Counted from the stretch's first letter, positions 1,671 through 28,310 are shown. The stretch is DNA of 64,000 nt from Spironucleus salmonicida (GCF_000497125.1 NC_090600.1:1075197-1139196), one strand, 5' to 3'. Translations and numbers: made by a program. Notes: a model not told the origin generated them from the sequence alone.

Positions 1671-3529
1671 TCAAATTACTTATCGATATTTAAGATACAG
1701 GGATAAGCTACCAACTACCATCACAGCTCCTATAGTACCAGCTTTCGTCTTCTGTTCCCTTATTCTCTCGGTAAAATCGTCTGAATCGCCTTTGTTCACT
1801 CATCTTGGAGTGTGACTCTTCTGAATATCTCACATAGTTGTTAGAGGTACTGTTCCGAGACCATAAATGTGCACACCGCATTTCACTTTAGATGCGTCGC
1901 ATATGGCTCAGTTTCAAGCGATAAAGCATCTGTATATGGAGGCAATCATTATGGTGTTATATACCTTAAATGCTTACTGTCCAGCTTTTTCCTCGCGGGC
2001 GCTCAATTTGGAAAGCACAGAGAGTAGCATGGCTTCTTGATGTTGTATAAATACCCCAGATTACAGGGGATTCAGTGTTATTGTAGTAAACTCGTGCACC
2101 CTGCATTGTTTCCTTCATCGGAATATGACCTCCAGACACTAGGAACCTAACCAATTTTGGAACTCAAGAAACCACAGATTCAGCGAAATCGGTGGCGAAG
2201 CCCCAACTAACACAGGCGCTGAAGCAAATTATAGTTTTCCGGATCATTTTCTATTAGACCAGCATTTTACATACTCTACGAGGTACCAACCCTCATATTC
2301 GCTACATTTCCCTAACTGCATTTTCTGTGTGGTAAGTATTTATTGCACTCATTTTCCGCTACTCTGCAAGACACACAATCAACCACGCCCTGAATTTACA
2401 TTCAAATGCTAGGCATTCTACAAGAGCTTTGAATCGCTGTCTTCACAGTAATTATCAGCTTTAATACTTTAACATTTTTGGTACATTAACAGAGATAGTA
2501 GTATTTTATCATATTCATAACATGCTGTGTAAATACTAGCAGATATACGATCTGCACACTAGTTTGTGCGCAATTTACTTCTGCTTGTTACTGTCTAACA
2601 GGAGTCTCACATGATGCTCCCCACTTATCGTTGGACTTGAAATCACAGACATACAAGTTGGTTTTGGTATTTACTGGATATTCATCCTCACATTTATTGT
2701 ATTACCCTTTATCACTACAAGGTTCACACTCGCCAACACAGCATTCACAAAAGGTGACAGTACCTAAAATCGTGTGTTTTATACACTTGGCGCATTCACC
2801 ACCGGCGCATTAATACTAAGCTGATATGTGAGTGTGATCTTCACAATACCAACCGCTATAGAAGGCTATATTTTCAGAGCAAGGCAAAAGCCTACCTGAA
2901 ACCTGCTGGTGCATTAACAGTAATACCTAATGTTGTATAGTAAAACCTCTGCTGAGCAGACACTGCCTTCTGCCATTCACACTTTGGGGATCTGGTAATT
3001 CCTACTGATTAAGTATTTTTTTTCATATTAGTAATTTTGCAACTAAACCTGCGAGATATCCATGATACTGGAGTATACCACGTGTGGGTATTTTTAGTTT
3101 TTGCGATGATACTAATTTGTGCGGAGCATCCCAATTGTTTAATACACCACTCTGTCTCAAAAGCACTTTCTTTCTATTCTGTCGGCACCCAGTTTCTTCG
3201 TTTTATTTTAGGTGAAACTGGGTAGGATGCTCGCAAGAGTTTTCTGTTTCGTATGCCTGGCTAAATCGACGCCAACACTGGGTCCGGAAACTGCATTCAG
3301 GCTGGTGCATCACGTTAGGAGCCTTTAGAGACTGATAGATGCATCCTTTACAAATCGCGTTAGGGATTCTGAGCAAAGCGGCTATGAACTTCGCGGACGT
3401 TAAGGCATCAGATAGATCTCGGAGATGACATGAGCAGAAAGAAAGTAACATCTAGTATGGATCAGTAGGAGGACAAATCACCCATAGCAAATCATTCTTA
3501 ATACCAAACATAATTAAATCGAATTTCAT
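1671..3529 (-). pseudogene. Decayed cysteine-rich membrane protein (CRMP-like) gene, left copy
   Basis: CxxC-rich segments (e.g. CAGGECAKC...CECCVGECEPCSDKG) spread over several frames with in-frame TGA. Ends in a hydrophobic remnant KAGTIGAVMVVGSLSLYL. Boundaries approximate. Confidence 0.65.
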
Positions 3530-5101
3530 GTATTAGCTGATGGGTATTTATCAGAATATTAGCTAATATAAGAGCAGGAGACTCAAGTTGGCAGATTATA
3601 ATTATTTTCTTTAAACATATATTATATCGTCCACTACGTTGATCTATATGTATTTGCCTTTTCTTTATCGAGATACTAACTCTTATTTATTTACATATAT
3701 TTGCTTCTAATATCATATTACAAAAATAAACCATATCAGCATACAAATATACAAAATAACAATTTTTCTGCATCGCATTGATTATCAAATTAACTTTGAC
3801 TTATTAAAATATAATAAGTGGAATGGGATTTGAAATAAAATTAATGGACACAACTTCCACAATCTACTCAAACCACCAACTCTATATTTTATCACTACTC
3901 ATATCTTATTTAACATTTATACTATAAGCAGGAGAAAACACAATACAGTCCCTGGTTATTCTAATAAACTAAACAAAACACAAGAAACTGTGTAAAACTA
4001 TATCTTAAATATGTAATTAAATCGAAAAAATTATATCTTCAGAATTTGCTTGAAACCTATAAAGTTGAATAGATACATTTTATTCTTAGCGAAAAAATTC
4101 CCAGTATGCAAACTTATGGTGGTCATCTAAATTAAAATTTATCCCATACATTATAAAATGGAGAGGAAATAATTGTGGTCTGCTGTTTAGACAAGGATTT
4201 CTTAGTTGCTAATCTTGAAATTTAAATTTAAGATCATTTATGGAAAGGCATGAATTGACATAGGCTTGTGTGATAATAAATTATAGAAAATTAAATTATA
4301 AGATTTAGACTACCTTAGGTTGTTTATGTACATTTTCTGAAGTTATAGTCGCAGTGTTGAGTTAATGCATTTCGGATTTTGGTACTTTATTTTACATTAA
4401 TATGTAATAACTATATGATATATAATGCGAAAGAATGAGTGCCTCGATAATGTATATTATGATTGTAGGGATATTCTGTTGTTGTATGGCATAAATGTAG
4501 AATTTGAAGTATGAGTATATACTTAATTCCAGCTTTATGGTAATATTTAAGCAGAGTTCAGTATCAGTGATATTTTGATATACTAGCTCACCTGAGAAGT
4601 AAACACTTTACATTTACTAAAAATTTATAATCGCCAAGCGTGCAGGCAAGAGTACTGCTGGAAATTATGAGCGTATTTTCATGAAATTTGTAGTTTTCGA
4701 TGGTTCAGGATATTGATCTGATAGCTGATTGAAAGTCTTATGATACAAGGAAGCTAGCAGTTAAATTATTATAAGTTCCTAGAACTGGTAACTGAAAGCT
4801 AAATTTGGTATTGCTGACGTAGTTCGAAGAGTATACCATTGTTGAGTAAAAGAGAACAGGGTAGTGCGTCTGTGAATGACACGGCAGGATTGGTAGTATT
4901 TTATACTATAATTCAGTTTGTATTGGAGGCTATTTAGCACGCTAATCTGCTCAACAGGACCACCCCCGAGTACTTTGTCTGTAGGTATTATTTCATAATA
5001 AATATAGTATTATATACAATACTACCAGTTTATATGCTATATAGCTGAAATTGCAATTCATTGTACTTTACCATATTTAAGGGCATGGGGTTTCACTCTA
5101 A

Positions 5102-8100
5102 ATGTAAAAACTGTTATCTATAGATTTCATAGTACACTAATATACCATTTTTAATGGAAAAATAAAGGTGGATGGTAAGAAATAAAAGATACTCACATTT
5201 ACCATAGAAGGCAGCGAGATCAGATAGTCTAGGTAGTTGGATGTAAGTTCCATGTACCTATTCAAAACCACTATTACTACCACGGAGCAGCTATGCGCGG
5301 TCTAGGTCGTTCTACTCTACAAGAAGCTGGGGAAAATTGCTTAGAATGTGCGATTTTAGATATCATAGTTTGAAGATATAATTAAATTCCGATATTCAAA
5401 TTTTTGGGACAATATCGGCCTTGTCGCAGCCCAAATGGGCCTAGATGTACTATCTGTATAATCGGCCTGTGAATCTTATTGTACTTAATTTGCCAAGAGC
5501 ATTGAAAATCATGATTTGTAATACTTTTCGCTTTACAATAGCTTTGACACAAAAAAAATTCTCTAGCCTAAAAATATATCGTATTTTAGCTTCCATGAGA
5601 ACCAAGTTCTGTTGTAACTAGCAGCAATAAAGTATTAAAAGGAAGGAAACTATCCTCTAATTCTGCCATTAATTCTTGGTTACTCGGCATTCAGGTTGTA
5701 TGAGACTTAATTTAACACGAAATATAAAGAAAATGATTAGTAGATGGAAAATTTAAAACTACTTAAAGATACATTTGAGGAATCGAATAAGATTTACTCT
5801 GACGCGCAATTACTAAAAAACGGAACTATAGAACTCAATACGTTTCCAATTATCAACCTGTTCGAGCTTCCTATCCACTTTAATGAGACTAGCATTTGCT
5901 TATTAATGTTCTAGCAGCTCTGCCACGTATCCTACCTGTTCAAGGCAGAGTATTTCGCAATATTCTCCTTGATTGAAAATAAATTAGGCGATACTATTAC
6001 TAATGCTGTTATAAGCCAGAGTTCCAGATCTGGCAAAAGTGTCGCCTTGTACACGCAGTACTTTTTCCACCTGCTGATAGGAAATATTCCAATATTGTTT
6101 AATAAGGAAGGATCTGAGGATCAGCCACTGTACTAATATAAATCTGGGTCATTCCACTCGTAGCTGGAGAGATAATACTAGAATACACTCGAACTGCAAG
6201 ATTTCGAAAACTTAAGAGAAACCGTATTATATGATGTCTGCATCTTCCATGCCTTTCAACTGGAAAGTTTGAATCATCTAGAGTTTCTTTATCGCAAGAT
6301 GCATATTTTTATTGAAAATTTATAAAGTAGCACCAGAACAATTAATGGGGTTGGTGGACTCGATCTCATAAAGAATTTGAGATTTGATAGCTCGATAAAA
6401 CAACAGTTCAATTTGTTAAAATAGTATTCATTTTTTATCTATGAGGGTGATGTTGACACCAGCGGTATAATGGATGCGTAAGTGTTGTAATATAGTTTAA
6501 AACGTATGAATAATTAACGGCCTATGATGCTAGTTGACGAGTGCCTAGACTCATAAAAGTAAAATTACCAAAAATGTATAGCACTTTGCGAGGTTATTTT
6601 TGGAGAATCCCTATAGAGGTTTGTGCCACTGGGCAGATAGCAGTACGGAACTGTACTCAATATTCTAAAAAATGAGCAATTTGAATCGTTTTCCAATGAG
6701 TATATAGCTAGATACAATACTAAACATATTTTCGCCTGCCGTGTTCTTTCGCAGCTTCTGCACCCTGACTTGCTCTCAGTACTAAAAATGGAGCTAGACG
6801 AAATCAGTGCCTCAGAATAGCATCGGAGCTTGAACCTAGATTGCTACCATAAACTACAAATTATTATGACAAATATATTATCTTTAAGAAATAATAAATA
6901 AGTTGCAGAACCAGAAATAAACAAGCAGATATGTGAGAACTGGCATCTATTAACAATATATTTCAGCCTTCTCGAAGCAATACTGACTGATGTGGAGTAT
7001 ATTATTATGGCAACAGAGTATCTGCGGCTCTAGACTGAGGAATACGACATCCTGGATGAGCTTATAGTCTACTCACCGCAAATACTGAATGTTAGAAGCA
7101 GGAAAAAGTTTAAAAACAAATTTTTCTTAGGGTTACCGAAAAATTGCTTAAGCTAACAAAAATACAAAGAAGAGTTCGATTTGTACTTTTTTAGGTTCAT
7201 AGTTTCTTTGTTCGACCCGAGGGCGGTGGAGACTCTCTTCTGGAAGACGTTTTAGTTTATTAGTTTTGAACACATATATATAGAATAAAAGTCGGAGCTT
7301 AGGAGAGATTCTAAATATTGGTATTAAGTTGTTGCAAAATTTTGGATATATTCCGTAAATGACTAATTTGCATCTTATTTTAATTTCAAAACTCTCCCCA
7401 TCCGGTTTGAAGATTAACTACAGTCAATAATTACTAAAAGTAGCAGACAGTTGGAAAATCTAATTCACACTACGCATGCTAAAGTGCATGAGAGCTATCA
7501 CGCCTGTACATTTTCAGTTATAATAGTAGGGCCAGATATAGATATAATAAATGAGTCATCAATTGACAAGTTTAGTTATGAAACTTGTGAACGAGACTAT
7601 TCTTATCATTATGCTGCTAGCATTATTGGTTACGTCTAGCCGCACCCATCTCTGGTGCACAGTGCCCAATACGACAAGCGCAGCATGTTGGCCAACCAGG
7701 ATGATATGGGTGGAATACTGGATGGCATCCCCAAAACACTAAAAAGTTATTTAGACAGCTCTTCTAGTCTAGTCGAATTATTAAATTCTATGTTAGGCGA
7801 GAGTTCTGCTAGAATGCAGCTAATATGCCCTTTCATCTGCCATTAACTATGGTATGTGGATACAAAGTATTAACCTCAAGCTTGTAATTTTAACGCGGTT
7901 GAGAAGCATACGATTTAGGTCAACGGCAATAAAAGTATAGTCTACTAGTTCAGCAGTCTTACCAAAATAGTAAATTATATTGATATTAGTACAATCTGCA
8001 ATCGGGACAGTGGATTTAAAATTAACAGCTAAAGCTAAAATATTAATTTGCAAGAAAATGATCGTCGTTACAACTTGAGATGCATTGCTTCAGCTACCCT

Positions 8101-10204
8101 GAACTAAGAGGTGGTTGCAGTTCTGAGTTATTCTCTGATGTGTTAATTTATCCAAACGTATTCCATGGTTCAGCTTACAGCGATGGATGCATAACGAGAG
8201 TTCTGCAGCTTGTCCAGGTTATTCAAGCGGAGCATCCTAATAAATCATCTCAATATCATCTTGTTCATGATGATCATGACACAACAACCAGAGATGGCGA
8301 TTAAGAATACCTAACTGGTTATCCAGCAAGGGGAGAGCGGGGACATAGGATACTAGTACTTATATAAAGGCAGTATTATTACTAAGAATAGCGTGGAACT
8401 GATGAGATCCATACATCTCATACCAGGAAAACACGAGGTTATGGTCTTGGCTCCCACCTTCGACTTTGCGTTCCACGATTAGAATAATTGGAGGAAAAGA
8501 TTTACCCAGGCGGAGATATGGAACCAGGTGCTGAAAGATTCAATTGAATCTGCTGCGGAAGCTTTCGATATCCTGAAGGGGTAGAAAATCGTCACTGAAA
8601 GATTGATCATCGCAATCTGCTTCAATAAGAGCATGAGCCTATCACCGATATTAGAAGCATCGGAAATGCCATTCGACTTCATGCTCACCTTCCACGGCTA
8701 CAGTGGCCTGCGACTAGAGAATCTGCACGGCTATCAGATTTTGCCGGTATAGTGTGGCCACCACATCAAGGAAGTGATAGAGAAGATGGCAGCTCCGTTT
8801 GGACTAAGGAATGTGGTCCAGATAGGCCAGGATTAACATGAGGCATTGCCGCTAGTTAGGATGGAAAACTTAGCGGATACGATAGTTACGCAGCAGCAGA
8901 CGGAGGAGAGGGACGCCTACACGGAAGAGCAGAAAAATATTGGCGATAATTAAATAACTTCATATATTTATTAAATATAGAACTTATGTGACGACTTTCA
9001 GCGAAATATAAAAGCACTGCAGAGAGATCACAGATTATTCAAAGTCATAAGGCACGACCGTTAGCACTATATCTAGTTTATAACAAAAGCAAATGATAAA
9101 GACACAGTAATAGCGGATTTACGAAACATTAAGATTACGCTGATTCCTGACCAAGTCCCACTCTACGACTTTGCGGCACTATGTAATTCACCCAGCTGCA
9201 AAACTCAATTAAATTTTAAATATTCACGAGAGAATAAACATTTGGACGAAGTAATCCTGGACCTTGTACTAGTTCCGAAGTTTTCTCAGCTGAATGCCAA
9301 GCTGTGTGAATTGGAACATATGGTTAAATTTATAGAGTTACATGATACTAAGATTTTGATTATATTCCTTTAAAATATAAAATTATTATAACTGCTTCAC
9401 ATTCTCGAATTGTAGCTAGTATCGGTGTATAACAAAGTTTACGATTCCGCATTAACTGTTATTGTCCAGTAGACGGAAAATATAGATTCAATGATAATAA
9501 TAGAATTTAATGAAAATAAAACTTATTTCTATACTTATCGGAAAAGGCTATATGAGTCCAACTAAATAAATATGAGATTGCTCCAGATTGATATCGCGTA
9601 TTAGGCTGAGTTATCAGATAAGAAGATATATCCACCAATTACTGAGGATTCTAAAAAGCTCAACCTTAGTGTGCTGTACCTTAATCAGAAGATACAAATT
9701 TTGACTAGTTACAAGAGTTTGGTTTCAGAAATTTAAAACTATTAGAGTGTCATCTACAAAATTGAGAATGGCGTTATTCATCTGACGAATGAGAATGAGT
9801 ACATAGGATACATTGTTGATGCTAATAGGAAAATATTAACATTCATGGAGGAATATGAAATAGAATATGGTTACCTAATAATAAATCTCATCAAATGTGG
9901 TAAAGTTACTCTTGATAACAAGTTTTTGTTTGGATAATCGTTTGAGGTGTAATTTAGTATTATTCGTGGATTGTTTTAAAAAATAAATGACAGCTCAAAT
10001 GAATCATATTAGTGCTAGGTGGAGGTGCACGGTTAACTATTCACTGATGAATAGAGAAGTTATATTAAAGGCAAGTAGCTTGCGATAAGATAATATCCTT
10101 TAGGGGTAACTATAAATAATCTGTTTAGTCAAACCAAAGTGGTAGCGACAGGCATTAGACATGAAGAAAATAGAGATATACTGCAATTGGTAGCCATTGA
10201 GTGA
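5102..10204 (+). CDS. ~1700-aa hypothetical protein with putative P-loop NTPase motifs
   Basis: No in-frame TGA from 4880 to 10202 under table 6. First ATG is 5102 (alternatives 5252, 5435, 5744). Ends GAG-TGA (AGTGA). Walker-A-like NAVISQSSRSGKS (GKS at 6032-6040) and Walker-B-like PMMLVDE (6521-6541). Track ORFs at 7451 and 7655 are pieces of this frame. Confidence 0.8.
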
Positions 10205-12799
10205 TCTACCATTATTTTGTAATTTTCGCATCGAATAGGTATCAGTAGTCATATTTCACAAACTTATGAATTATTCATTCTTTCAAAAATCGGAAGAGAA
10301 TGTTTATGTATTTGACGTGTATTAGCAATATATCATTATTGTTTATATTCTAAAATACCCACTACAGGTTGCTACTCCCAAATAATCTGCAGTTAAGTAG
10401 CAACTAGTTATTAACATATTTAATGGAATATAAGTTACTTACGAACACGAAATCGCACTGCGCGACCAGTCCAGCAAATTTGCAGTTTTGTTGACTCCAG
10501 AGAAGCAATTTCTAAATCCTGCTTCCAACACATAAATTGAGCGCATTATTTCTTCTGGCACTCCGCTTCTCTGCCTTTATTAAACTCAACTAGTATAAAA
10601 TAACTTACTTAAAGCGAGGAAAAATATACTTTTGATAATTTTGCAGCTCTAATATTTTACAGCAAGCATCACTTTCTAGGCTCACGTAAACTTGAATACT
10701 AAATGCATTTTTATACTTCGGCAAATGCTGGTGCAGCAAACGTGTCTATAAGGCATTCGGAAAAACGGTAGCGAGCCTTTATAAATGGTAGGACTTAGGG
10801 GAAATCACAAAATCAACTGAAATATGGAAAGTGAGGATTTTATAGTGGTATAGTAAAACGTATGCTAGGAAGAGTTTCTATGGGGAGTTTCAGAAATCTG
10901 GAACTGAGAAGCATTCTGTCAAATGGCGTGATTCAATTATGTGTTGTAAATGTTTTCCGAGAGCTAGAACAGTGAGGCATATTCTACCATATACTGCATT
11001 AGAGATTGTGCAATTTATTACGGAAAAGAAACATTACACTGTGGACTACTCAGATAATAGAGTTGGTAATTCATTTGTATGAGTATACAAATTATTGGTA
11101 ATTCTGCTATGTTGTATTTAAATAATATAGAACTTAGGGAATTGGGTAGAGTTTGAATTATGCATTATCTAAAATAATGGAATTTGAAAGCTGCTAATTT
11201 CTATATTCACTAATTTAATTTGTCAACGGGTTAAAGATTAACTTCTAGATGCACTAGATCCTGTATTTGTCGGATTTAATGAAAATTCAAAATTTTAAAA
11301 AGCTGCCTAGATGCCTTTTATTCAGAAATATCTGTCTTTACTTAAGACATTCGTCAGACACTATCGATAAGGCAATTGTTTTGCAGCCAATGCTGGAATT
11401 CTTAAGTGGTGAGGAGAACATTAAATTTTAAACTAGTTTATATTAATAGTAGACTCTTTATAATTAATCACCGATGAAAGACTTGATTGGGTTAATAATT
11501 TAATGATTGAAAAATATAAGCCGTAGAGGACCTTGTTATTCGTAAATTAAGAGATATACGATGGATATGTTTTGGTAGGATTATTCATAAGATAGATAGA
11601 AACTAATATAAAAACAGCTGAGAATATCCGAAATTGCGTTGGAAAAATAAAAAGACACTGTTATATAAAAGCAAAGGCTAATATACAAGCTATATATCAA
11701 AAAATATTATTTTAAGATAAAAACAGGGTAACAGTTCCTAAACAGGTATAATATTGTATGCAAAAGGTTAAGAAAATAGACTTATTATATATTTATATTT
11801 GTTAACGAATAATAACTTTATATGAATAATAACGAATGATTATTAGTACACAATTATATTTATATTAAAAAATTATGAAAGGTAAAGACATTACAACGTA
11901 CCGCCGCTAAAGTAAATATAAATAATGTAGTACAAGAAGGCTGTGATAATAATTACTTATAAACTGCATTATTGGATATAGCTTTCAAATTTAATTCTCT
12001 AAATAATTATATCAATACAAAACAAATAGTATCAGACTATTGTAATTATGCATAAAGTACATACTTAGTTTATATTGAAATAGAATAGTTGACTGTAGGT
12101 CACTAACTTATCAACTACGGGATAATATTCTTCCAATAATTTTATTAAACTTAAACTACTGATAATTCAGGTTCTATCAATGTATATTCCAAAATAATAG
12201 TGTTAATTAACTATAACTAAATATTACCAATAAAGACTTATTATATACTCAAATTTTAATAAGATACATTTTATATAATGACTTTCTTTGTGTATTCTTT
12301 TATCTCATCTTGCTATAGGAATTCCTCGTCTTACTTTTGCATGTTATGATATTCAAGTTATTATTTATCAAAAAAGTAGACTCAGAAGTAAATTTTTTAC
12401 AAATATTATTATTCTCTGCCAAATGATAGCCTTCAATGCTGATAATAAGTTTATACTTGTTCAGTTATTAGTACAGTATCGTTATCTTTAATAAATAACT
12501 GTACTAAATATCGAATCTATAATTTCTCTAAACAAGAATATTTATTACTAGATATTAGCTATTTTGCGGTGTTAGTTTCACGATTTGTTAATATGATAGT
12601 TAATTTTATCATGGTAATACTATGAGAATTATGTTGTTACAAATAAAACGCCTATTATAGTAAGATACTGATAATGAAACACAAAACCATAAAGCTAACT
12701 ATAAAATAATTATATAGTTAATAGATAATCATGTACAGTAAGCTACAATACTGTTTCATTTGATATATAACCAAATATTTATCTACGAAACTTTGTATA

Positions 12800-13450
12800 A
12801 AGTAGAAACCCAGCACCTCAGCATACAACACCTAGCCTCGTGAAAGTTCATTCTTGTATCTCTTGGTTTAAGATATTGCTAGGGAGTAAAGTACATTGTT
12901 TCATTGAAAATACAAATAATTACACCAATAATAACAATTAACAAGTTCCATAAGTCTAGCCAGTGTTAATATCAGCTATTAATCTAGCTACCACGCATTC
13001 ATCAACTGATATGAAATTCAATTTTAGAATTTGCAAGTTTATATATACTGTACACCAAATTCAGCACCCACATGATATTTATACCACCAAAATAGCACTC
13101 TGAACGGTTTAGTTAGCACAATTGCGACTTCAGCAGAGCCTTATAACAGATCAGCTAGTAAGACTTACAGTACCATTCCCAGGCCCCATTGACCCAGAAA
13201 AGCATGCAGCAGCTTTCCTCTTAAAAGTTTATCTACCATTACATCAGATATAGGAATTCTTAAAATACCGCAATAAAACCCCAAATACTTTTACTTGAGC
13301 TGAGAATCAGTAACATCCCACAGAGACAGGCTTGTCACCAGCGCCCAAAAATATAAAATAACCACCCCGCACCACCTATTATATCACCTGCTACAAATTT
13401 CACGCTGCACCACACATTGCGCCCAGACACCGGCCCGAAAATCGAAACTT
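12800..13450 (-). pseudogene. Possible decayed Cys-rich/TM gene remnant (mirror at ~34866-35516, +)
   Basis: Remnant VKFVAGDIIGGAGWLFYI resembles the CRMP TM segment, with scattered Cys codons nearby and no long open frame. Boundaries approximate. Confidence 0.3.
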
Positions 13451-16400
13451 CCATATCACGACGAAAACGAGAGATAGCGATTTGCGTGTGTGCTGATGCC
13501 GAAATTAGCGGAAAATGGTAAAAAATAGTATTGAGTGTGTGGATATCGGATAGGTTACAAATATATCGCACTGAAAATTAGCTTCAAAAATTGCAGGGAT
13601 GTGTGAAGCTGGTCATAAGGGCCATGATGGCAGCGTGTGCGGTAATGAGGGAGCTGGGGAACGTGGATGTGTTTCAGGTTAAGGGGAGATATAAATAATA
13701 GCGTGAATAAAAATTACCAGGAAATATGGATAATACGTTTAGCATGTGTAAAGTGAAATAGTACCGATATGCGCAAATACAACATATATTATTTAGATTA
13801 GAATGCTATATGGTCTATATAAACTGAAGAATGCTGAAACTAATTTTGAGATGATAAGTAAACTGATTAAATTATATGGGGGAACTGCTGATTAATAAAA
13901 AACAATTCAGTTCATGATAATTTTTCATGTTGTAATATAGGGAAATATCGCTAAAATAGATGCTAAACAAAGATCTTCATATGGTATTATTTTATTATAA
14001 GAATCCCTGGATCATAAAAGAGCATATAACTAAATTACAGGGGTTGTTAACGTATTATATTTCTTTCTTATTTTGATGGGTACAATGAGTTTTGTAATGC
14101 GGGGATGCCTATGTAGTAAGATGAATAGTTTAACCATTATTATATTAGATTCAGTCAATAACGTTAGTAATATGGGAGCATAAATTCTTCTGGAAATTTA
14201 TTTCATTGGTAAAATATCATATGGGGATATGTATTCTAGCCTAAGCAGGAGGCGCAGCTTCAGAATAATTTAAAATTTTAGATGCAAGGCATTGGCAAAG
14301 CAAATAAAATGTTCAACAAATACTGTGTAATAGAAAATAGAAGAGGCGCAACCTGAGTGACGGGGTTCTAGTTAAATGCGTAAATGCATGGTATTGGTAC
14401 AATATCCTGATGACTACAAGGTTCTAATTTATACTAGTTAGCCTTGAATCCTAGATCCTCTGAAAACAGATGCTGATATGCTACCATATTGATGGGTGAA
14501 TACTCAGTAGTACCAAAGCTAAACAACGATGATAAAGGAAATGGTACTATTCTACTTTCCTCGGCCGATAGAAGCTACCGTATATATCACCCAACGTATC
14601 ACTGATATTAGAATTCTACCTCTCATTTGGTGTATGCAAATCTTCAGAAGCATACGTAAATGCTAGTGCAGCATAAAATCCTATCTACAACACCCTGAAA
14701 GATAACTTATAGGAGGCCTAGCAGCCGTATTATGCATAGCTCTTAGCACATCATATATATGATACTAACGTATATTTATAGTAAATTGGCTGTGTTGCAT
14801 ACTTTCTGAGACTATCATTTCCTGAATTTTCTAACTAACTAAGAGCTGTAGATATTTTAACTTAAGCATCAAATTTATTTAGCACAACATATACTAATGA
14901 AAATTAGGCTGTAATAGGCTCTTGATATTTGCATAATTTAACAATGATACGATAATAGCAAATTTGGGGATTTACTACTGGCTGGCCTGGATGAAGTAAT
15001 CTATATTGAGTCTACAGGAAAACTATTAATACTTTGCCTATGCGAGGTTATCAAGCTAAATAAATTATGCTGGTCTCTGGTAAAATGTGGATATCATAGT
15101 TAAATATCAACAAGGTCGGTATTTGAATGAATGATTGATGATAATTAGTAAAATTGTAACCTGTTAAATAATATATGCAACCAGGCAAACATATGGAAAT
15201 TATTAATCTGCCTTAAATATATTTAAAGGTATTATAGTAATAGAACATTAACACTATGCAGTTTAGAGAATATACAGGCATGATGTAAACTAGTACATAA
15301 AATGATAAACGGTTATTATTCTTAAGATAGTAGCTTCGGGGGTATAAACTTCAATTCTTCATGATCATATATTAACGTTATATACTATTATATACTTTTA
15401 GGTTTGATAAGCCACTGAATCTACTTACATATGCATTCTGAGTATCTTAAAGGCAAAGTATCATTCTTAATAGCGTTGTGGATTATACTGTGTATATGCG
15501 TACATTAGATATTCTGGTAAAATATGATAAAACAAACTCGCGTATATGTTACTGAATTTATCTGCACAGTGTTTATGTTTCTGAGCAATCAGCATGATAG
15601 GGGAACTGTTATTAAAATATCCTTATACACTAATATTTTAAATAAAATATATCCGCCGTATTTAAAGATGTATATGCTTCTAACAGCAAATAAGAAATCC
15701 ATATTAAATAAATTTAGTTTCTATTTGAATATTTGGAATGAAAGTTTATATTATTGCGTATACCAGGTGAGTACTTGAATTATAAAATTTGCAAATATCG
15801 TGAGTATTACTTTTAGTTTTGATTATCCACAATGCAAAGTTTAAGTCCGTTAATCACAATAAATTTATATTTTGTTCACCCGAATTATCGTTATTTAGTA
15901 TAAATACAAGACAGTTTTATAAGCAAGAATACGGTTAATGATATTTAACATTATTCTTTAGTTGATCAATATAATAGAGCTTAATATTTTATTAATTAAT
16001 AACATAGCTTATCGAATTATGAGTATTTTATGTAAATCTATGCGTGGTCTTGTTATTATGTTTAAACAGATATATAAGATTATTATTGTAAAGTCTATGC
16101 AGTTATAAGCTATACTATTTTCAAGATTTCGCGAAAATATATGTTTATATAAGTAGCCAATTATGCTTATAGGAATACAAATTAATATGTCATAACTTGG
16201 AAAACTGCTGCGTCCTTTACCTATGCGATACACATATACTTATGCTAGTTAACACAGTATGCTAAAGGTTACAGGTTCTCATTACTGTAGTCTGATAATA
16301 ATATTCGGGTATCACTATATAACAACAAATTGAAACGAGTCTGCCAAATAAATAAAAGCGTTATACAGAATATTAAAGTACTCAAAACTTACTATATATC

Positions 16401-17879
16401 CTATATGCTAGGTTTTCATATTATTGCACATTTTTATGACATGTACTGTATATTTATATAACTAAAATCTCATAGAATGAATCTAATTTATCATTTATTC
16501 GGTTGGTGCGTCAGTAAATATTGTTTATACTCAGAATATAGCGGTGCTTATAGGAGATACTAAGCTAGTACATATTACTGAAAACCATTAATCCAATAAA
16601 GGTCACTAGCTTCGTATCCATAAACAGCGATTTGGTAATTTACAAGAGCTAAGCTTAGGGTAAAATCAAAAGAATGCGAAATTATACTAGATAAAATGGT
16701 AATAATTAGCCATCTTTTGCATTAAATTTTAACCTACAACAGAAATATATCGTAATATACACGATACGACGAAATTATATAGCGAATGTAAGGTGGTATA
16801 TTAATAGCATACAGTTTATTTATAAAAATATGTTACATACTACTAGATTTAGGTATTTTTATAATAATATCCCACAACAAAGATACTGCGGCCAAATACA
16901 ATATGAGGCTGCTATGGAGCAGGGCAAACTAATGAAAAAGTAAGACAGTAAAAGCTTAAAATTATAAATGGATATGTTAACTAGAGTAAGCATAATTTAG
17001 TTTAGACTTTTAATCGTGTTTGATGCATATGAAAATTTGTACATAAAATTATTTTTGTATTTCAGCTCCGATATTAATTAAAGTTTTCAGATAGAAAATG
17101 TATTGCAAGGACTTATCTCATTACGTATAAGAGAAAGCTTCGGTTACCAGTAAATTTTGATATTGTACCTTATTATTCTTGAGCAGTGTGGCACAAGATC
17201 GCATTTAGCGAGAAATGCTACAAAATAATAGTATCAGCAAAAGTTTAAAAATAAATAAGGACATTAATATAGCAAACAGTGAGTCTATGTTAGCATTCGC
17301 ATAGAAATATTACTAGTATTTAATTTGGGGTTAGAACCTAATCAAGCTGATGTGATAATTATGGATTATATTTCTGCTGGTAAACACTTAATATAGCCAT
17401 AAGAGTTTAGACGGGTTGAGAAGTTTGTCAATAAGCGTGGTAAATAGTTTCTAGGATTTGCTCGGTTCAGTGGGTGATGGAAATAATGCTAGCTCAGCTT
17501 TCACAATCCAGGGATATAGCAATAATAACCCAACTGGTCGAGAATAAGATTGTAGCTGTGCTAATTACGATTTGGTAAATTGTGGTGTGAGATACTCTGA
17601 ATTGATACTGTTAGGGCATATGTAGCATGGAGAGAGGTTTATGGATGCTGATGTGGGGGGCCAAAAGGTATCTAATTGATGACGGTAGTTTTAGCTCCTA
17701 CGTAGTGTAAAAGTGCTATTTGATAGATTTTGCAGTACTGGGCCGGATCAGGTATGGGCCGCATTGCACGACGCTCAGATTCTGGGTGCTTGGTAAAATT
17801 GTGTTTTAATATATAGTATTATTATATATTTAAAGGTAAAGGGGAAATATTCGTAAGAATAATATTTTTTAATATATAA

Positions 17880-18560
17880 AATGTAGTAAATGCTATTGTC
17901 ACGGCGAGCGTATTAAGAACTAGCGCTTATGTGCTAGCGAATACTGTTTGCATTGCATTGGTAAGAAAAGCCAAAAAAGATGAATGTGTGCTTAGCGAAT
18001 GCAATACAGACTCCTACTACAGCGCAGCAGATTTCTGTCCGAAGACGATTAATAGTTCAACAAGTGCGAATGTTGCGATGGCACCTGCAAATATTTCGCT
18101 GAAGCATCGAATTAGTGCACGAAGTGGTTCGCATGGAGCTACTGAACAAAATAAAGTGACTGTGAAACATTACCTGCAAGTGCATCTAAGACTAATCATT
18201 AGAAAGTGTTTCTGCATTTATAAGCACCAGGGATGGTCAATCTTCAATACTGCACCAAACTGCCTTTTAGATAATAGTTATGGCGGCTGTTCGCTGTGTT
18301 ATAATGAATATTTAGCTAAATCAAATAGTAAGTGTTGACCATGCTCCACATCGATGGCAATCGACTTAAAATTCAACTGCGGGCGTAAACTTTAAATCAA
18401 CTGCTAGAATGTAAAGCACATGACGAGAAACCCTGCCTGGAAGGCTTTAAACCGATTGACAGTAAGTGATGAAAATTACTGCCTTATGATGCAGAAGGCG
18501 GTACCAGTGGATTTTCTAGAAATGGAACACCTATTCCCATAATTCCCTCAGAAGCGCGAT
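17880..18560 (+). pseudogene. Decayed cysteine-rich protein gene
   Basis: KCSKCYC..., DECVLSECNTDSYYSAADFCP, NCLLDNSYGGCSLCYNEYLAKSNSKC*PCS and EKPCLEGFKP in shifting frames with TGA stops. Confidence 0.6.
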
Positions 18561-19315
18561 AAAAATGCATCAGCGGGTGAGGCGGAAGCTCAGTAGAGCA
18601 CATTACGAGATTGGGGCAATTTCTATTGAGCAGTACGCCCTAAAACTGCAAACTGTAGCAGTTTAGAGACACCACTTGATAGTACTGGCGAAAATCACCC
18701 AAAACTGTGCAGGCGAAATGCGCGAGGCTTGAATGCTGCTCGAACGTCGGAAGCACTCCACCTGAAACTGGCGAGGTCTGGACTTTTGAGGATAGGTGCC
18801 CGAAAACTGCAGATACCACGGATAGTAGTGGGAAGTAAGCGCCGAAAATAGCGTGATTTGCGCGCATGACAATGCCAGGTGCGTAATGGTGGTGGGTGGT
18901 AGCAGGTAGGCTATCATCATGGTGGGTCGTGGGACTGGAATTTGGGGTATAAAATATGCAAATAGGAAAAGAATCATAGGATGCTGGGATTCGACTGAAA
19001 TAAGGTAAGGAGAAGCAGTTAAAATAGGAGCAAATGGCGGGTTAAACGAGATATGAACGTGAGTATAATAAATCATCTAGATAGAAATAGCTTTAATTGG
19101 AATAGTATTGGGGGAAACTAGAAAAGCTGTAAGCAACTGAGTAAAATTATCGAAATAGGGTTAGTGTTTAGTTCAAGTCATATTAGGTGGTTTTAGTTTA
19201 CCATTTTTAGTATGTTCTGCTTAACTTCATTATTAGATATAATAAAATATATTATTCAAATTAAATGCTGACATCCCAAATTCAGAAGTTTTACTATATA
19301 CTTATAAATTAAATA

Positions 19316-20005
19316 TCACTTTTTACCCTTCTTGATAAAATAATAAGCAAGGCCGCCCGCAACGGCGCCAACGACAAGAACCACCCCGACGACAATTCCG
19401 GTCACTGCCCCACCACCTAGCTTGTTGCTGGCCGGGGCCTCGGGGTCCACCGGTTGCTCCGGTGGAACTGGCACATTTGGATCAACCGGTGGAACTGGCA
19501 CGTTTGGATCAACCGGGTCATCTGGGATATCTGGGTCTGATCCAACTTTCCAGCACATTCCAGTAATTAGTGTAAATCCTTAAGCACAATCCAGACAACG
19601 GCCATCCCTGTCCATCTTCATTCCTGTTAGGCAAGTGGCACATGTTGGTAAACCACTATCTTTGCAGGTCTTACAGTTACTTCTGTTTCCACATTTGCAC
19701 GATGACGTGGTAAAGTCTGTGCAAGTTTTAGCTTCTCCTTCACCACAAAATTAATCCTATATGAGATCCTTACAGATTGGAGTACATTAACCTGTTGTCG
19801 TCGTTACGTGAGTAGTAGGCTCACAGGAATTGCACGAAGCTGCAGACTAGCAGACAATGCAGTTTGCTTAGCATGGTTAACACGTGTGGGTATTTTTGTC
19901 GCAATAACCTTCATGTTTACTTGCGCAGTCGAAATGTCTAGTACACGTGGAAACTGCATCATTTACTTGCGTATTGGTATTATCTTGGGTCATTTTTAAA
20001 ACCAT
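19316..20005 (-). CDS. Cysteine-rich membrane protein, CRMP1 type (229 aa; CxxC ectodomain, Pro-rich stalk, TM, KKGKK tail)
   Basis: Table 6: [27 protein letters not shown]...[20 protein letters not shown]...[36 protein letters not shown]. The [KR][KR]x[KR][KR] tail is typical of Spironucleus CRMP1. Stop in AGTGA. Confidence 0.92.
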
Positions 20006-21540
20006 GGTATATATTATATTCTTCAATAAACAAAACACTATTTAACCTGTTTTTTAAAATCTCATAAATAAAGCTATTACTTAAATATCACAGTTTCTCA
20101 AAACCTAGAAAGTAATGGCTGTTCTAATATATTAATAAATACCTCTAACTATAAAATGTAATTTATCAAAGAATAATTAATTACAACAATATTATCACTA
20201 ATGTTATCGTAATGTAAAAAGAAGAAAATATTTTGAGAAGGAGTCCGTAATTTAAAGATTTCAGCTATCTGCAAATAATTACAATATATTTAATTTAATA
20301 TAAAATTGTGTAAAACAGAACTTTATATATTATATTGATTTTACTATTTTTCTAACACTATCCATGGAACATTAAACTACTGTTTTCACAAAATTTAGTA
20401 ACTTCTATTTGCAATAAACTAATTTCATCATAATTCGAAGTTAGAAGGTAGTAATTCTACTACTATTAACTAATTTCATACGATGAATAACAAATAAAGT
20501 ATAATATTATAGTGAACTAATTATTTAATATCTTAAATAATAGCTACAAGTAAGAAGGGAAACTAAGAAAAGAATTTAATATTTTTCTTGTTCAATTAAA
20601 TTCGACTATCCTTATATAATATACACTTTATATTGAAAATGCACTTATATGGATAAGAAATTTACGATACGAATTAGTCACCCTACAGTATTTGGCGATC
20701 GTGTCTCAAAGGGAGCCCGTAAATCTATGAATCAACACCAGTAAAATATTTCTGTGAATTTTATGTAGATTTATGCTATTTTGTTCCAAAGCGTTGATTA
20801 CTATCTAATACGTTCTTTTTGCTGCTAAAAAAGAACTTATCTGCACCTTTTCTGTGCAAATATCCCTCAAGTTTCATTATGTTTCGTTTCGTCTAAGATC
20901 TAGGGCTTTCTACGTTAGCATTGAATTAGTTCGATTCAGGTTATGATCGCACCTTTTTCTTCAGTATTGAGGTTTTCATACACGGCATAACTCCATTGAC
21001 CTCAGTTTCTAGCTCTTTTGCTTACCTCACATTCTTACTATGATACCAGTAAGAACTTCTGATATTAAAGTAGGTTAAACCAACAAAAACAGTGACTAAA
21101 GGAAAAGTTTAGCGAATAACATGAATGGGCGTACTGAGGTAATTAATATTTTACAAATAATAATCTTCTACCTCAACTATAAACTATGCCCAAATTGCTG
21201 ATGAGATTAAGTTTATCGAAAACTCAACTGCCGATATTCGCATCATTACTATAATATTGACAACGTTAATTAACATTTAGGTAAGCAAACTAGCGAAAGA
21301 TATGTCATACTAAAGAATAGAGTGAGTATTTCGCCAGGGCACAACAGTCCAACGAATGAATTAATGCCGAGAACTGAAAGTTAAATTTTAACAATACCGC
21401 AACCCTAACCCCGTTCTTCAAAAGTTGAGGCTAAAACATAATATTATAGACCACTTAATATTATAGGTAGAAGATCCATGCAGCGTTGCTATGCTTACCT
21501 GCCCCAATCATAGATTCCCAGCAAAGGAGAAAAAAGACAC

Positions 21541-21613
21541 GGGAGTATAGCTCAGGTGGTAGAGCAATCGCCTGCAAAGTGATCGGTCACGAGTTCAATT
21601 CTCGTTACTCCCT
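21541..21613 (+). tRNA. tRNA-Cys (GCA), left copy, no adjacent oligo-T terminator
   Basis: Acceptor stem GGGAGTA/TACTCCC, D-arm TAGCTCAGGTGGTAGAGC, anticodon arm ATCGC-CTGCAAA-GTGAT, T-loop GTTCAAT, discriminator U (Cys identity element). Confidence 0.95.
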
Positions 21614-22847
21614 ACTATCTTAGAAAACTATATAAGATAATATTAATTATATCTAATATTAATATGGTTATAAGTGATGTTATATTACAAATACCTATCT
21701 AAAACTTGATTCCTTTTAGTCATAAAATATTTACTGCATGAATAATAAACCATATTAATAGTAATTTTTTCATAAGAATATTGCTTATTACTTTCAAAAT
21801 AGACTAACAACGATAAAAGATACAAATATCATAATGAAATAATTGACAAAATGTATATTTTATTCAGTATACAATCTTAGAAACATAAATCAGTGATATG
21901 TATAATATTTTGAACTAAAACTATTACATACCTTATTAATTACTGTATCTTTACATAAAATGCTACTATGATCAGGAAATTACTTTAAAGTTATGCAACA
22001 TTAAGTTTCTAAATTATTTTTATAGTATAATTATAATATATAATAATTGTATTAATTTTTCTTCAAAATGGTGATATATTCTAAACTTATGACTGTTCTC
22101 CTATAGTTATTTTATTAAAATGTTATTACCTTGAGAAATAAAATAAATATTGTATTGTTATCTAAACTGATTTTGTTTAAATTGCTGAGTTTATCCTTGA
22201 TTTGAGAATATAAATAATATTTTTTTCATTAAATAAGTTGTTAGCCATAAATTACACATTAGGATTTTAATTTAGAGTAATAAAAATCTTAAAATTGGGC
22301 TTATTAGTGTTTGTATGATGCTTAAAGATCTAAATTCATGTATTAGTAATTATTTACAATGATAGACCACTAATAATTAATTTACTTTTGTAATATTTAT
22401 TTAAATTAGTGACATATGCAAAACAGCCAAAAGTTAGCAGCACTAGTTTAGCATACAGCTAAACTTCCTTTAAAAATGTATTTACATAAAACTAGGAATT
22501 ACATGAAAATATTAAAAATATAGTCTATAAATTTATAAAACTATTTTAAGCTATGAATATTGCTTTTATTTAATTATATATGAAAGTAGTTTAACAATAT
22601 TAATGAAGGTTATGTTATAATTAACTATCTACTTGTATCTATTTTTAATACATAGTTATTGTGTAAAAAGGATTTCATACAGTAATATAGCGATTTATAG
22701 CAGTATTTATTCTTAATTTTACCTATTATTATAAATATTTTTATAACATCAGTAGTATGTAATATGTACTACTACAAGTACTATCAAGTCTAGATAGAAA
22801 ACTTATTTTATTAATAATTTTTTTCTAATTTACGAATATTTAATAAA

Positions 22848-26694: not shown

Positions 26695-26700
26695 AAAAAA
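26695..26700 (-). terminator. Oligo-T Pol III terminator of right tRNA-Cys
   Basis: AAAAAA on + (T6 on -), 2 nt after the discriminator base. Confidence 0.8.
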
Positions 26701-26702
26701 GT

Positions 26703-26775
26703 AGGGAGTAACGAGAATTGAACTCGTGACCGATCACTTTGCAGGCGATTGCTCTACCACCTGAGCTATACTCCC
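26703..26775 (-). tRNA. tRNA-Cys (GCA), right copy with Pol III terminator
   Basis: Exact reverse complement of 21541-21613, followed by AC-TTTTTT on the coding strand. Confidence 0.95.
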
Positions 26776-28310
26776 GTGTCTTTTTTCTCCTTTGCTGGGA
26801 ATCTATGATTGGGGCAGGTAAGCATAGCAACGCTGCATGGATCTTCTACCTATAATATTAAGTGGTCTATAATATTATGTTTTAGCCTCAACTTTTGAAG
26901 AACGGGGTTAGGGTTGCGGTATTGTTAAAATTTAACTTTCAGTTCTCGGCATTAATTCATTCGTTGGACTGTTGTGCCCTGGCGAAATACTCACTCTATT
27001 CTTTAGTATGACATATCTTTCGCTAGTTTGCTTACCTAAATGTTAATTAACGTTGTCAATATTATAGTAATGATGCGAATATCGGCAGTTGAGTTTTCGA
27101 TAAACTTAATCTCATCAGCAATTTGGGCATAGTTTATAGTTGAGGTAGAAGATTATTATTTGTAAAATATTAATTACCTCAGTACGCCCATTCATGTTAT
27201 TCGCTAAACTTTTCCTTTAGTCACTGTTTTTGTTGGTTTAACCTACTTTAATATCAGAAGTTCTTACTGGTATCATAGTAAGAATGTGAGGTAAGCAAAA
27301 GAGCTAGAAACTGAGGTCAATGGAGTTATGCCGTGTATGAAAACCTCAATACTGAAGAAAAAGGTGCGATCATAACCTGAATCGAACTAATTCAATGCTA
27401 ACGTAGAAAGCCCTAGATCTTAGACGAAACGAAACATAATGAAACTTGAGGGATATTTGCACAGAAAAGGTGCAGATAAGTTCTTTTTTAGCAGCAAAAA
27501 GAACGTATTAGATAGTAATCAACGCTTTGGAACAAAATAGCATAAATCTACATAAAATTCACAGAAATATTTTACTGGTGTTGATTCATAGATTTACGGG
27601 CTCCCTTTGAGACACGATCGCCAAATACTGTAGGGTGACTAATTCGTATCGTAAATTTCTTATCCATATAAGTGCATTTTCAATATAAAGTGTATATTAT
27701 ATAAGGATAGTCGAATTTAATTGAACAAGAAAAATATTAAATTCTTTTCTTAGTTTCCCTTCTTACTTGTAGCTATTATTTAAGATATTAAATAATTAGT
27801 TCACTATAATATTATACTTTATTTGTTATTCATCGTATGAAATTAGTTAATAGTAGTAGAATTACTACCTTCTAACTTCGAATTATGATGAAATTAGTTT
27901 ATTGCAAATAGAAGTTACTAAATTTTGTGAAAACAGTAGTTTAATGTTCCATGGATAGTGTTAGAAAAATAGTAAAATCAATATAATATATAAAGTTCTG
28001 TTTTACACAATTTTATATTAAATTAAATATATTGTAATTATTTGCAGATAGCTGAAATCTTTAAATTACGGACTCCTTCTCAAAATATTTTCTTCTTTTT
28101 ACATTACGATAACATTAGTGATAATATTGTTGTAATTAATTATTCTTTGATAAATTACATTTTATAGTTAGAGGTATTTATTAATATATTAGAACAGCCA
28201 TTACTTTCTAGGTTTTGAGAAACTGTGATATTTAAGTAATAGCTTTATTTATGAGATTTTAAAAAACAGGTTAAATAGTGTTTTGTTTATTGAAGAATAT
28301 AATATATACC

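Follow-up and report, generated by a model that had tools for sequence, protein, structure and literature searches.

The DNA analysed here is a 64,000-nucleotide stretch of the Spironucleus salmonicida genome (hereafter the window), which contains a large palindrome with one copy of a giant gene in each arm. Its features, numbered from the first nucleotide of the window, are as follows.

1774..21621, no strand assigned: left palindrome arm, carrying copy 1 of the gene.
26695..46541, no strand assigned: right palindrome arm, carrying copy 2.
5102..10204, plus strand: intact 1,700-codon gene (copy 1), with TAA and TAG as Gln and a TGA stop at 10202-10204; its start and end match full-length paralogues.
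5102..5551, plus strand: N-terminal alpha/beta domain (AlphaFold), residues 1-150, conserved in the family.
6002..6091, plus strand: Walker A-type block, residues 301-330 (NAVISQSSRSGKSVALYTQYFFHLLIGNIP), with the core QSSRSGKS at 6017-6040.
6521..6541, plus strand: Walker B-type motif PMMLVDE, residues 474-480, marked by the conservation of D479 and E480.
6596..7228, plus strand: all-helical domain, residues 499-709 (pLDDT mostly 60-89 in both models).
7499..8851, plus strand: conserved core, second half, residues 800-1250.
8852..10201, plus strand: variable C-terminal module, residues 1251-1700.
38112..43213, minus strand: mirror copy (copy 2), in which a 1-nt deletion leaves two separate frames, one of 1,055 aa and one of 707 aa.

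Copy 1 is a real and intact gene of this salmon parasite. Translation with table 6 (the Hexamita/ciliate code) yields a single frame of 1,717 codons from a TTG (5051-10204); from the first ATG it runs from 5102 to 10204 and encodes 1,700 aa, with 79 TAA or TAG codons read as glutamine. This confirms the original prediction of a 5.1-kb TGA-free frame that the standard code misses: under table 11, no ORF of at least 100 aa overlaps positions 4000-11500, and gene callers that use the standard code overlook such a frame completely. TGA accounts for 0.0169 of the trinucleotides in the window, so that a TGA-free run of 1,717 codons would arise by chance with P of about 10^-12.7 per start; the remaining five frames contain 19-66 TGA across the same stretch. 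Both ends of the protein are backed by paralogues. At the start, MQKLLSIDF aligns with MTNPLSVDF and MPVPLRISF, at the C-terminus LQLVAIE aligns with LQLIAIE and LQLIAVE, and the alignment between them is colinear over the full length. The gene had also been called hidden, which is true in part: the search of the public protein collection did not return the 1,700-aa product itself, but it did return P0003, the mirror copy's truncated product of 1,055 aa. The window protein has no transmembrane segment besides one marginal window, and no signal-like or hydrophobic stretch at its N-terminus.

Four public runs from a single study contain contigs that carry the gene from about 5200 to 10214, and contigs of the same runs include variants of both copies at 9964-10094. 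These contigs are of unrecorded kind, with no RNA run listed among them. They break at 5192-5200, where their loose ends are unlike one another. Contig depth is 0-12 at 4600-5000 and 10312-10700, compared with 20-120 across the gene. This pattern would fit a transcript; stretches left uncovered by these contig runs count as no evidence.

The palindrome arms are 19.8 kb long and 99.3% identical, and are separated by a 5,073-nt spacer (21622-26694). Copy 2 has a single C at 40101 where copy 1 has CC (8214-8215), a deletion seen too in 2,789-nt contigs from the four public runs. One of the two local copies, the frameshifted mirror copy, is a pseudogene. The 19.8-kb inverted duplication, with the local gene in one arm, would be young, and the mirror copy appears to be decaying. 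Sections of the genome paper retrieved by a term search (PMC9509377) mention neither palindromes nor the giant-gene family. One alternative is a mobile or selfish element copying itself across the genome, with the gene as its cargo or enzyme. Copies are indeed many, some of them apparently near contig ends, the local one lies within a duplicated segment, and paralogue similarity extends beyond the coding region, P0023 matching some 200 nt ahead of the start codon (4904-5101). However, the sole close copy here is accounted for by the palindrome, which also duplicates genes unrelated to the giant-gene family, and the 64-kb window holds no family copy besides the palindrome pair. With 34-66% identity in the clade of the window's gene, the paralogues are an old, varied set rather than near-identical bursts, and Pfam detected no domain of the transposase, integrase, reverse transcriptase or Rep type in 17 members. 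We consider a mobile element very improbable.

The gene is one of a superfamily whose distinct proteins number at least 29 and are 1,000-2,400 aa long. An initial protein search returned 21 matches (20 named S. salmonicida proteins and the window's own). A second clade (clade B) adds eight clusters, and P0031 is a divergent singleton; identity between clades is about 20%. A search of 1.84 billion representatives gave only 12 matches and nothing outside the superfamily. All named members are from S. salmonicida, a statement that covers named members only, the 12 matches including the short P0023, P0024, P0026, P0028 and P0029. To judge from these sequences, the superfamily appears to be a multigene family restricted to S. 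salmonicida. The description of the protein as an orphan therefore holds outside the species and fails within it, where relatives are many. That the family is uncharacterised stands as well: literature searches found no description of it. About half of S. salmonicida genes are given as ‘hypothetical’ in part of a published account (PMC6397501), and this superfamily, with its dozens of ∼5-kb genes, ranks with the largest blocks of such genes. Each member keeps the same few catalytic-looking residues while exchanging tails.

Conservation divides these proteins into a core and a tail. Mean column identity is 0.66-0.87 in the core versus 0.37-0.49 in residues 1251-1700. P0016 and P0019 are 99% identical in the core and 24% in the tail; conversely, P0014 and P0019 share 64% in the core and 95% in the tail, and P0008 and P0009 share 69% and 98%. 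Tail-type groups are rejected on the core tree by the AU test (p 1.4e-9 and 8e-42). These comparisons indicate that the last ∼450 residues have been swapped between paralogues by recombination. The variable header that had been proposed is in fact conserved (mean column identity 0.66-0.72 over residues 1-200), and the variable part is the tail.

Within the core, two Walker-type motifs lie where they had been placed. The Walker A-like loop, AVISQSSRSGKS, occupies residues 302-313, and PMMLVDE lies at residues 474-480, with the predicted 167 residues from K312 to D479. Both motifs are real and are the most constrained features of the family. Residues 301-330 are its most conserved 30-residue stretch (0.965), with S310, G311 and K312 present in all 29 aligned members. 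Every sequence in the 21-member alignment has D479 and E480, as do 28 of 29 members superfamily-wide; the 29th, P0031, has LLSDEAL by pattern search. The spacing from SGK[ST] to hhhhDE is 158-235 residues across the family. The first Walker A position is Gln in clade B and in the clade of the window's gene, and Ala in P0031, which has the orthodox AxxxxGKS form (AAPSKSGKST). For the window's clade, Gln in place of the first glycine is unusual and counts against an NTPase.

We compared a profile of residues 285-520 by hhalign with reference profiles that we built from E. coli K-12 genes. The ABC profile gave 75.5% (E 2.4e-5) over 26 columns on the Walker A loop, and SF1, SF2 and AAA gave 13%, 7% and 5%; the SMC/AAA_21 class yielded only RecF- and RecN-type matches over the cut-off in E. 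coli K-12, too few for a profile. True cross-family P-loop pairs, as positive controls, reached 59-93%, and the negative controls (the reversed region and three other family regions) at most 0.21%. Scores were 25-42 on genuine Walker A loops versus 9-15 for the four negative controls. The SGKS block thus appears to align with true Walker A loops at the level of the motif. Because just 26 columns are covered (21-29 across the P-loop profiles), the match concerns the motif and its flanks, not a domain.

Structural prediction was less informative. AlphaFold, run with 21 and then 34 family sequences, gave pLDDT 25-50 over residues 224-395, with the motifs among the poorly modelled parts. Canonical P-loop cores are usually modelled with ease. 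Both models place a helix straight after GKS (residues 312-325, pLDDT <50), and model 1 has a strand at 475-478, just before DE. The stretch between the two motifs has few predicted strands. With AlphaFold so unsure of the motif regions, a P-loop fold could not be demonstrated, and neither Foldseek nor VIA found one. P-loop, helicase and ATPase Pfam models had no match in 17 members (E up to 10). The original prediction was to fall if profile and structure searches found no P-loop fold; with a motif-level profile match but no fold, that objection therefore applies by half.

These results leave room for the motifs to be relics, and for the protein to have a scaffolding or structural role without enzyme activity, as a pseudo-NTPase whose family expanded for reasons unrelated to nucleotide turnover. 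No match at the level of fold or family supports an NTPase, the protein is largely helical, and two of three clades have Gln for the first Walker A glycine. Against this, between clades that are about 20% identical the block is conserved above all others, which a relic would not be, and all the residues that Mg-NTP chemistry requires (Lys, Ser/Thr, Asp and Glu) are retained. We judge a pseudo-NTPase unlikely, if worth keeping in mind.

A second alternative accepts the motifs and assigns them to a divergent superfamily-2 (DEAD/DExH/ResIII-like) helicase or translocase, the family then paralleling the ‘telomere-linked helicase’ genes at fungal chromosome ends. SF2 motif I is APTGSGKT. The APSKSGKS of P0031 resembles it, DECL or DEAL stands at the DExH/D place, and the spacing of 158-235 residues fits. 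Residues 300-640 of P0031 gave DEAD, ResIII and SecA_DEAD only among the named ESM Atlas matches (0.78-0.81), which calibration makes a lead only; P0002 gave no usable match. Locus-tag numbers and contig sizes further suggest that some members may adjoin contig ends (SS50377_20001 and _20005; _24558 and _24564, on two different contigs). On the other side, the SF2 profile match falls below that to ABC, DEAD, ResIII and Helicase_C have no match in 17 members (E up to 10), motifs III-VI and a second RecA-like domain are not recognisable, and a helical domain of ∼230 residues directly follows DE. The window's copy itself is flanked by ordinary genes, without chromosome-end features. In our view an SF2 enzyme is quite unlikely.

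The other parts of the core form recognisable blocks of generic fold. Residues 1-150 are modelled at pLDDT 62-86 save one 10-residue block at 50, and fold searches gave only weak, unspecific matches for them (ThDP-enzyme modules at Z about 5, APOBEC at Z 3.5-4.2). An APOBEC-like identity for residues 1-153 was considered and dropped: the rows are weak (Foldseek E about 0.1), ThDP-enzyme modules score equally, and no HxE/PCxxC-type zinc site is visible by eye in residues 1-200. We treat this domain as a generic alpha/beta sandwich. The helical domain, whose fold matches were all of a generic helical kind (Z at most 6.9), ends in the superfamily-invariant P706-R707-x-x-E710-x-x-F713-W714. Residues 800-1250 contain the invariants G810-x-D812, G843-x-x-Q846-x-H848-x-S850 and D1121, with TFHGY (1196-1200) and CGHH (1218-1221) conserved within the window's clade; an alpha/beta domain is modelled at residues 1009-1239 (pLDDT about 60-82), and residues 706-1009 fall below 50.

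Database searches gave no family assignment. The whole protein matched nothing in Pfam, PDB sequences or PDB profiles, the family profile found one unrelated match only among PDB sequences (E 0.2), and PADLOC, NCBIfam and PHROGs gave nothing relevant in eight members. Fold searches with model 1 (Foldseek PDB, VIA wide and VIA second look) and model 2 (Foldseek PDB, VIA wide and BFVD) found nothing above background, the top Z of 6.9 being on helical parts. These searches bear on the original proposal of a Crinkler/RHS-type (CR) NTPase-nuclease effector or a STAND-type NTPase. The layout of a domain, an NTPase-like site and a long tail in a multigene family is what suggested it. Yet no Pfam model of Crinkler or RHS, no NACHT or NB-ARC domain, and no WD40, TPR, LRR or ANK repeat of the sensor type matched in 17 members (E up to 10). 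The N-terminus is neither signal-like nor hydrophobic and the header is conserved rather than variable. No nuclease-like match came from Pfam, PADLOC or fold searches with models that lacked the tail (residues 1251-1700). Such an effector is hardly credible here. What survives of the earlier interpretation is the motifs and the uncharacterised family; the header proved conserved, and these searches gave no support to the Crinkler/RHS/STAND assignment or to a nuclease.

We instead favour, at slightly better than even confidence, a protein putatively driven by NTP, with a specificity tail that can be exchanged and an organisation like that of trypanosome RHS proteins. The frame would be a working gene for a soluble, intracellular protein of 1,700 residues. 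Every member has a conserved core of ∼1,250 residues followed by a fast-evolving tail of ∼450. Along the core come the N-terminal alpha/beta domain, the putative Walker-type nucleotide site, the helical domain and the second conserved region with its invariant polar residues. The predicted layout of the nucleotide site is a strand, xxxxSGK[ST], a helix and then, 158-235 residues on, hhhhDE. We infer that the core may be an NTP-binding, probably NTP-hydrolysing engine, and that the tail may set what each paralogue recognises. The organisation is RHS-like, though ancestry is not detectably shared.

Were the core to function as an NTPase, the family would amount to a molecular machine peculiar to this lineage, with diversity built into it, and would lend itself to tagging and knock-down in a diplomonad that can be transfected. 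Such a pattern is otherwise seen in trypanosome RHS proteins and immune receptors. A role in conflict or mobility is speculation. One specific form of it, which we hold to be distinctly improbable, is that these are diplomonad-specific, NTP-switched intracellular sensors, a functional counterpart of NLR/STAND or ABC-ATPase-based immune receptors, in which a conserved nucleotide-driven core and a hypervariable, shuffled C-terminal recognition module guard against viruses, mobile DNA or genomic conflict. To our knowledge, no innate immune receptors are known in the diplomonad lineage.

Like CR and STAND proteins, the Spironucleus proteins are modular giants with an NTPase-like site in an expanded family; they differ in their conserved header and in the family models, nuclease and repeat sensor that searches failed to find. 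With SF2 helicases they share motif I- and II-like sequences, their spacing and the ESM neighbours, but not the profile score (7%), the helicase Pfam domains or a recognised second RecA-like domain. Subtelomeric telomere-linked helicase families, multicopy at chromosome ends, exist in fungi, and the Spironucleus family may resemble them in being multicopy and partly distributed at contig ends. ABC-type ATPases provide the best profile match to the SGKS block and the short strand-turn-strand before it, and the Spironucleus proteins likewise have an hhhhDE preceded by a Pro six residues upstream, and a variable helical insert between the two motifs. However, the signature motif LSGGQ is not conserved, there is no H-loop or conserved His after Walker B, and no ABC_tran or SMC_N Pfam model matches, only 26 columns aligning confidently. 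A DTSGI 25 residues before D479 occurs in the window's gene and some paralogues only, and is absent in others, P0016 and clade B among them.

RHS proteins are about half the length of the Spironucleus proteins. There is no detectable sequence relationship between the two, and because no Pfam family matched in 17 members (E up to 10) we do not assign RHS membership. A retroelement insertion site is known for RHS, whereas none is known in the Spironucleus family, and a nuclear location with a role in chromatin or transcription has been proposed for RHS. As described in part of one published account (PMC7563717), RHS proteins combine a highly conserved N-terminal part, which carries an ATP/GTP-binding motif, with a highly variable C-terminal region by which subfamilies are defined, and they form a large lineage-restricted multigene family of recombinant mosaics with many pseudogenes, part of it at chromosome ends. 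The Spironucleus family is likewise a lineage-restricted multigene family with a conserved N-terminal part that bears a nucleotide motif, a variable C-terminal part and mosaic members; some of its genes may likewise lie at chromosome ends, and it too has a pseudogene in the frameshifted copy 2.

When TAA and TAG are translated as glutamine, 5051–10204 (+) is one open frame of 1,717 codons, and from its first ATG at 5102 it encodes a protein of 1,700 residues (copy 1) with 79 TAA/TAG codons and a TGA stop. TGA makes up 1.69% of the window's trinucleotides, so a TGA-free run of this length has a chance probability of ∼10^−12.7 per start; the remaining five frames of the stretch contain 19–66 TGA each. 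No ORFs of ≥100 aa overlap 4000–11500 under the standard bacterial table (table 11). The gene model is fixed by full-length paralogues that share its start and stop points. The ∼200 nt before the start codon (4904–5101) resemble residues 49–114 of the family protein P0023, and paralogues therefore have upstream sequence in common besides the coding region. Both motifs lie where they were first placed: the Walker A-like AVISQSSRSGKS at residues 302–313 and PMMLVDE at 474–480, with K312 and D479 167 residues apart. Both the gene (copy 1) and its motifs are genuine, and the gene belongs to a large family whose named members, within the protein collections searched, all come from S. salmonicida.

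Among 5.8 billion proteins, a word-seeded search found 21 matches to the copy 1 protein. Twenty are named as ‘uncharacterized’ or ‘hypothetical’ Spironucleus salmonicida proteins (1,033–1,824 aa, 34–66% identity), and the last, P0003, is the product of copy 2, the mirror copy within the window, which holds no third family copy. A profile covering positions 1–1,184, scored against 1.84 billion representatives, retrieved only 12 proteins. More distant relatives, where named by follow-up searches, are also from S. salmonicida; they include a second clade of eight clusters (P0027, P0032–P0036, P0025, and P0030; 17–26% identity to the window protein) and a singleton, P0031 (SS50377_27878). With so many paralogues, the protein is not the orphan it was first taken for. 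Members carry locus tags SS50377_20001 and _20005 on one contig and _24558 and _24564 on two different contigs; if tags are consecutive, this gives some support for members lying a few genes from contig ends. The window's copy has no obvious nearness to a contig end. Outside the window, the second-clade protein P0025 (UniRef V6LLP0) bears the source name ‘Dynein heavy chain’, which looks like a mis-annotation; its Pfam-like matches are only to coiled-coil models (Tropomyosin, ATG16), below cut-off and in a repetitive insert. P0031, also outside the window, is equally long but highly divergent; it keeps the GTD, QxHPS, and TFHG motifs and may most resemble the family's ancestral, non-expanded form.

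Column identity in a 16-member alignment is 0.66–0.87 over most of residues 1–1250 (the core), with dips to ∼0.5 at 201–250, 401–450, and 751–800, and falls to 0.37–0.49 beyond residue 1250 (the tail). The N-terminal part is therefore conserved and the tail variable, the opposite of the ‘variable header’ originally proposed. No other 30-residue stretch of the protein is as conserved as the SGKS block (301–330; 0.965); 263–292 comes next, and the DE block ranks eighth. Among the most informative new facts is that the motif residues are conserved across all three clades: S310, G311, and K312 are present in 29 of 29 aligned members, and D479 and E480 in 28, the exception being P0031, which is misaligned and carries LLSDEAL. 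P0031 also has an orthodox Walker A, AAPSKSGKST (AxxxxGKS). The motif-to-motif distance ranges from 158 to 235 residues across the family because a helical, partly low-complexity insert varies in length. All three clades further keep P706-R707-x-x-E710-x-x-F713-W714, G810-x-D812, G843-x-x-Q846-x-H848-x-S850, and D1121. The copy 1 protein has no signal-like N-terminus by sequence and hydrophobicity, and transmembrane prediction gave no segment beyond one marginal window.

Another of these facts is a motif-level profile match backed by controls. Residues 285–520 from a 34-sequence alignment were compared using hhalign with profiles built from E. coli K-12 genes that Pfam models had identified (14 SF2, 14 ABC, 11 AAA, and 5 SF1).

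hhalign probabilities, for family residues 285–520 unless stated otherwise; each alignment of this region takes in the SGKS loop with its preceding strand and following helix, over only 21–29 columns
ABC: 75.5% (E 2.4e-5)
SF1: 13%
SF2: 7%
AAA: 5%
Negative controls (reversed region; residues 500–715, 795–1010, 1009–1245): ≤0.21%
Positive controls (genuine cross-family P-loop pairs): 59–93%

Two AlphaFold models, of residues 1–795 (21 sequences) and 240–1250 (34 sequences), reached mean pLDDT of 58.3 and 49.9 and left residues 224–395 at 25–50. Both place a helix straight after GKS (motif region pLDDT 25–50), and the first places a strand before DE. Fold searches with the confidently modelled parts (residues 1–150, ∼499–709, and ∼1009–1239) gave background-level matches only (best Z 6.9), the family profile search yielded no relevant PDB chains, and no P-loop, helicase, or ATPase family was found by Pfam in 17 members at E up to 10. 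Given residues 300–640 of P0031, a feature search in the ESM Atlas returned only DEAD/ResIII/SecA_DEAD clusters (0.78–0.81), a lead by the tool's own rating. The predicted P-loop is thus matched at the level of the motif, and its fold was not found in the Pfam, PDB, or AlphaFold-based searches. Conservation pattern, local secondary structure, and the profile test together support a P-loop reading, and an NTPase core is plausible, short of fold-level proof. Nucleotide binding and turnover by the core are predicted with somewhat better than even confidence; its class may be ABC-like, SF2-like, or another ASCE type.

The suggested CR, STAND, and nuclease affiliations found no support. Across 17 members, Pfam models at E up to 10 gave no match to Crinkler, RHS, or NACHT/NB-ARC, to nucleases, or to transposases, integrases, and reverse transcriptases. 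PADLOC defence models matched none of 8 members. The structure models covered residues 1–1250, and the tail beyond them may still hold a nuclease.

Copy 1 and copy 2 lie in opposite arms of a palindrome that also carries cysteine-rich, VSP-tail-like ORFs in its arms and spacer; its outer neighbours are ordinary genes.

1774–21621, palindrome left arm, carrying copy 1
26695–46541, palindrome right arm
5,073 nt, palindrome spacer
38112–43213 (−), copy 2
19316–20065 (−), cysteine-rich ORF, mirrored at 28251–29000 (+)
22848–24170 (−), cysteine-rich ORF in the spacer
Outside neighbour, MFS sugar transporter
Outside neighbour, amino-acid transporter
Outside neighbour, WD/bromodomain protein
Outside neighbours, two ELMO-domain proteins
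Outside neighbour, hydrolase

Over 19.85 kb the arms show 80 + 65 differing positions and one indel (99.3% identity), which rules out a perfect fold-back of the assembly-artefact kind. Differences cluster (e.g., 5646–7069 and 9994–10949) and are absent from the innermost 5.1 kb by the spacer (16511–21616) and several kilobase stretches elsewhere, a pattern suggestive of patchy conversion between the arms or of uneven age. Copy 2 has a single C where copy 1 has CC (8214–8215), a deletion that breaks the gene into two frames, 1,055 and 707 aa long. Of the 48 codons that differ between the copies, 36 are nonsynonymous and 12 synonymous, a roughly neutral ratio. Copy 2 deviates at the family-invariant residues M269I, C274F, and L628M. 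At 287, 291, 292, 475, and 1063 it is copy 1 that differs from most of the family and copy 2 that agrees with it. Copy 2 is apparently a young pseudogene, and patchy conversion between the copies may also have occurred. This pairing of intact gene and pseudogene within a palindrome is also among the most informative new facts. In a single study, contigs (kind not on record) of four public runs contain the gene as well: a 2,789-nt contig over 7204–9993 carries copy 2 variants including the deletion, and variants of both copies appear at 9964–10094 (depths 34–52 and 52–70). Both versions therefore exist in read data beyond the window, although the runs may derive from the very sample that was assembled and their support is not necessarily independent.

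The cysteine-rich ORFs have a C-terminal transmembrane helix and short basic tail and match a Giardia VSP model weakly, below the cut-off (E 5e-4 and 1e-3). Probably they are genes, or remnants of genes, for CRMP-type surface proteins. Elsewhere, two divergent genes with ELMO/CED-12 domains occupy opposite strands with 3 kb between them (58352–59599 (+) and 62459–63793 (−)). A second very long table-6 frame at 53358–58190 (−) (1,610 aa, 94 TAA/TAG) encodes a protein that begins with a WD/beta-propeller-like stretch, has a bromodomain at its C-terminus, and is unrelated to the family.

Core and tail (residues 1251–1700) identities are sharply at odds between paralogues.

Identity of paralogue pairs in core and tail
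P0016 / P0019: core 99%, tail 24%
P0014 / P0019: core 64%, tail 95%
P0008 / P0009: core 69%, tail 98%
P0012 / P0015: core 63%, tail 94%

On a core tree of 16 sequences (residues 251–1150), the AU test of tail-type groups rejects {P0014, P0019, P0021} (p 1.4e-9) and {P0008, P0009} (p 8e-42) as clades. Tails have been swapped between paralogues by exchange, and this formal evidence is likewise among the most informative new facts. Tail-type labels of P0011 and P0013 rest on fewer residues because their tails are shortened; core and tail are congruent in the subclade that the window's protein forms with P0002 and P0007. Trypanosome RHS proteins, as described in PMC7563717, have a conserved nucleotide-motif core and recombining variable C-termini that define subfamilies. 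The S. salmonicida family has no detectable homology to them but shares a likeness of design, joining a nucleotide-motif core to recombining variable tails.
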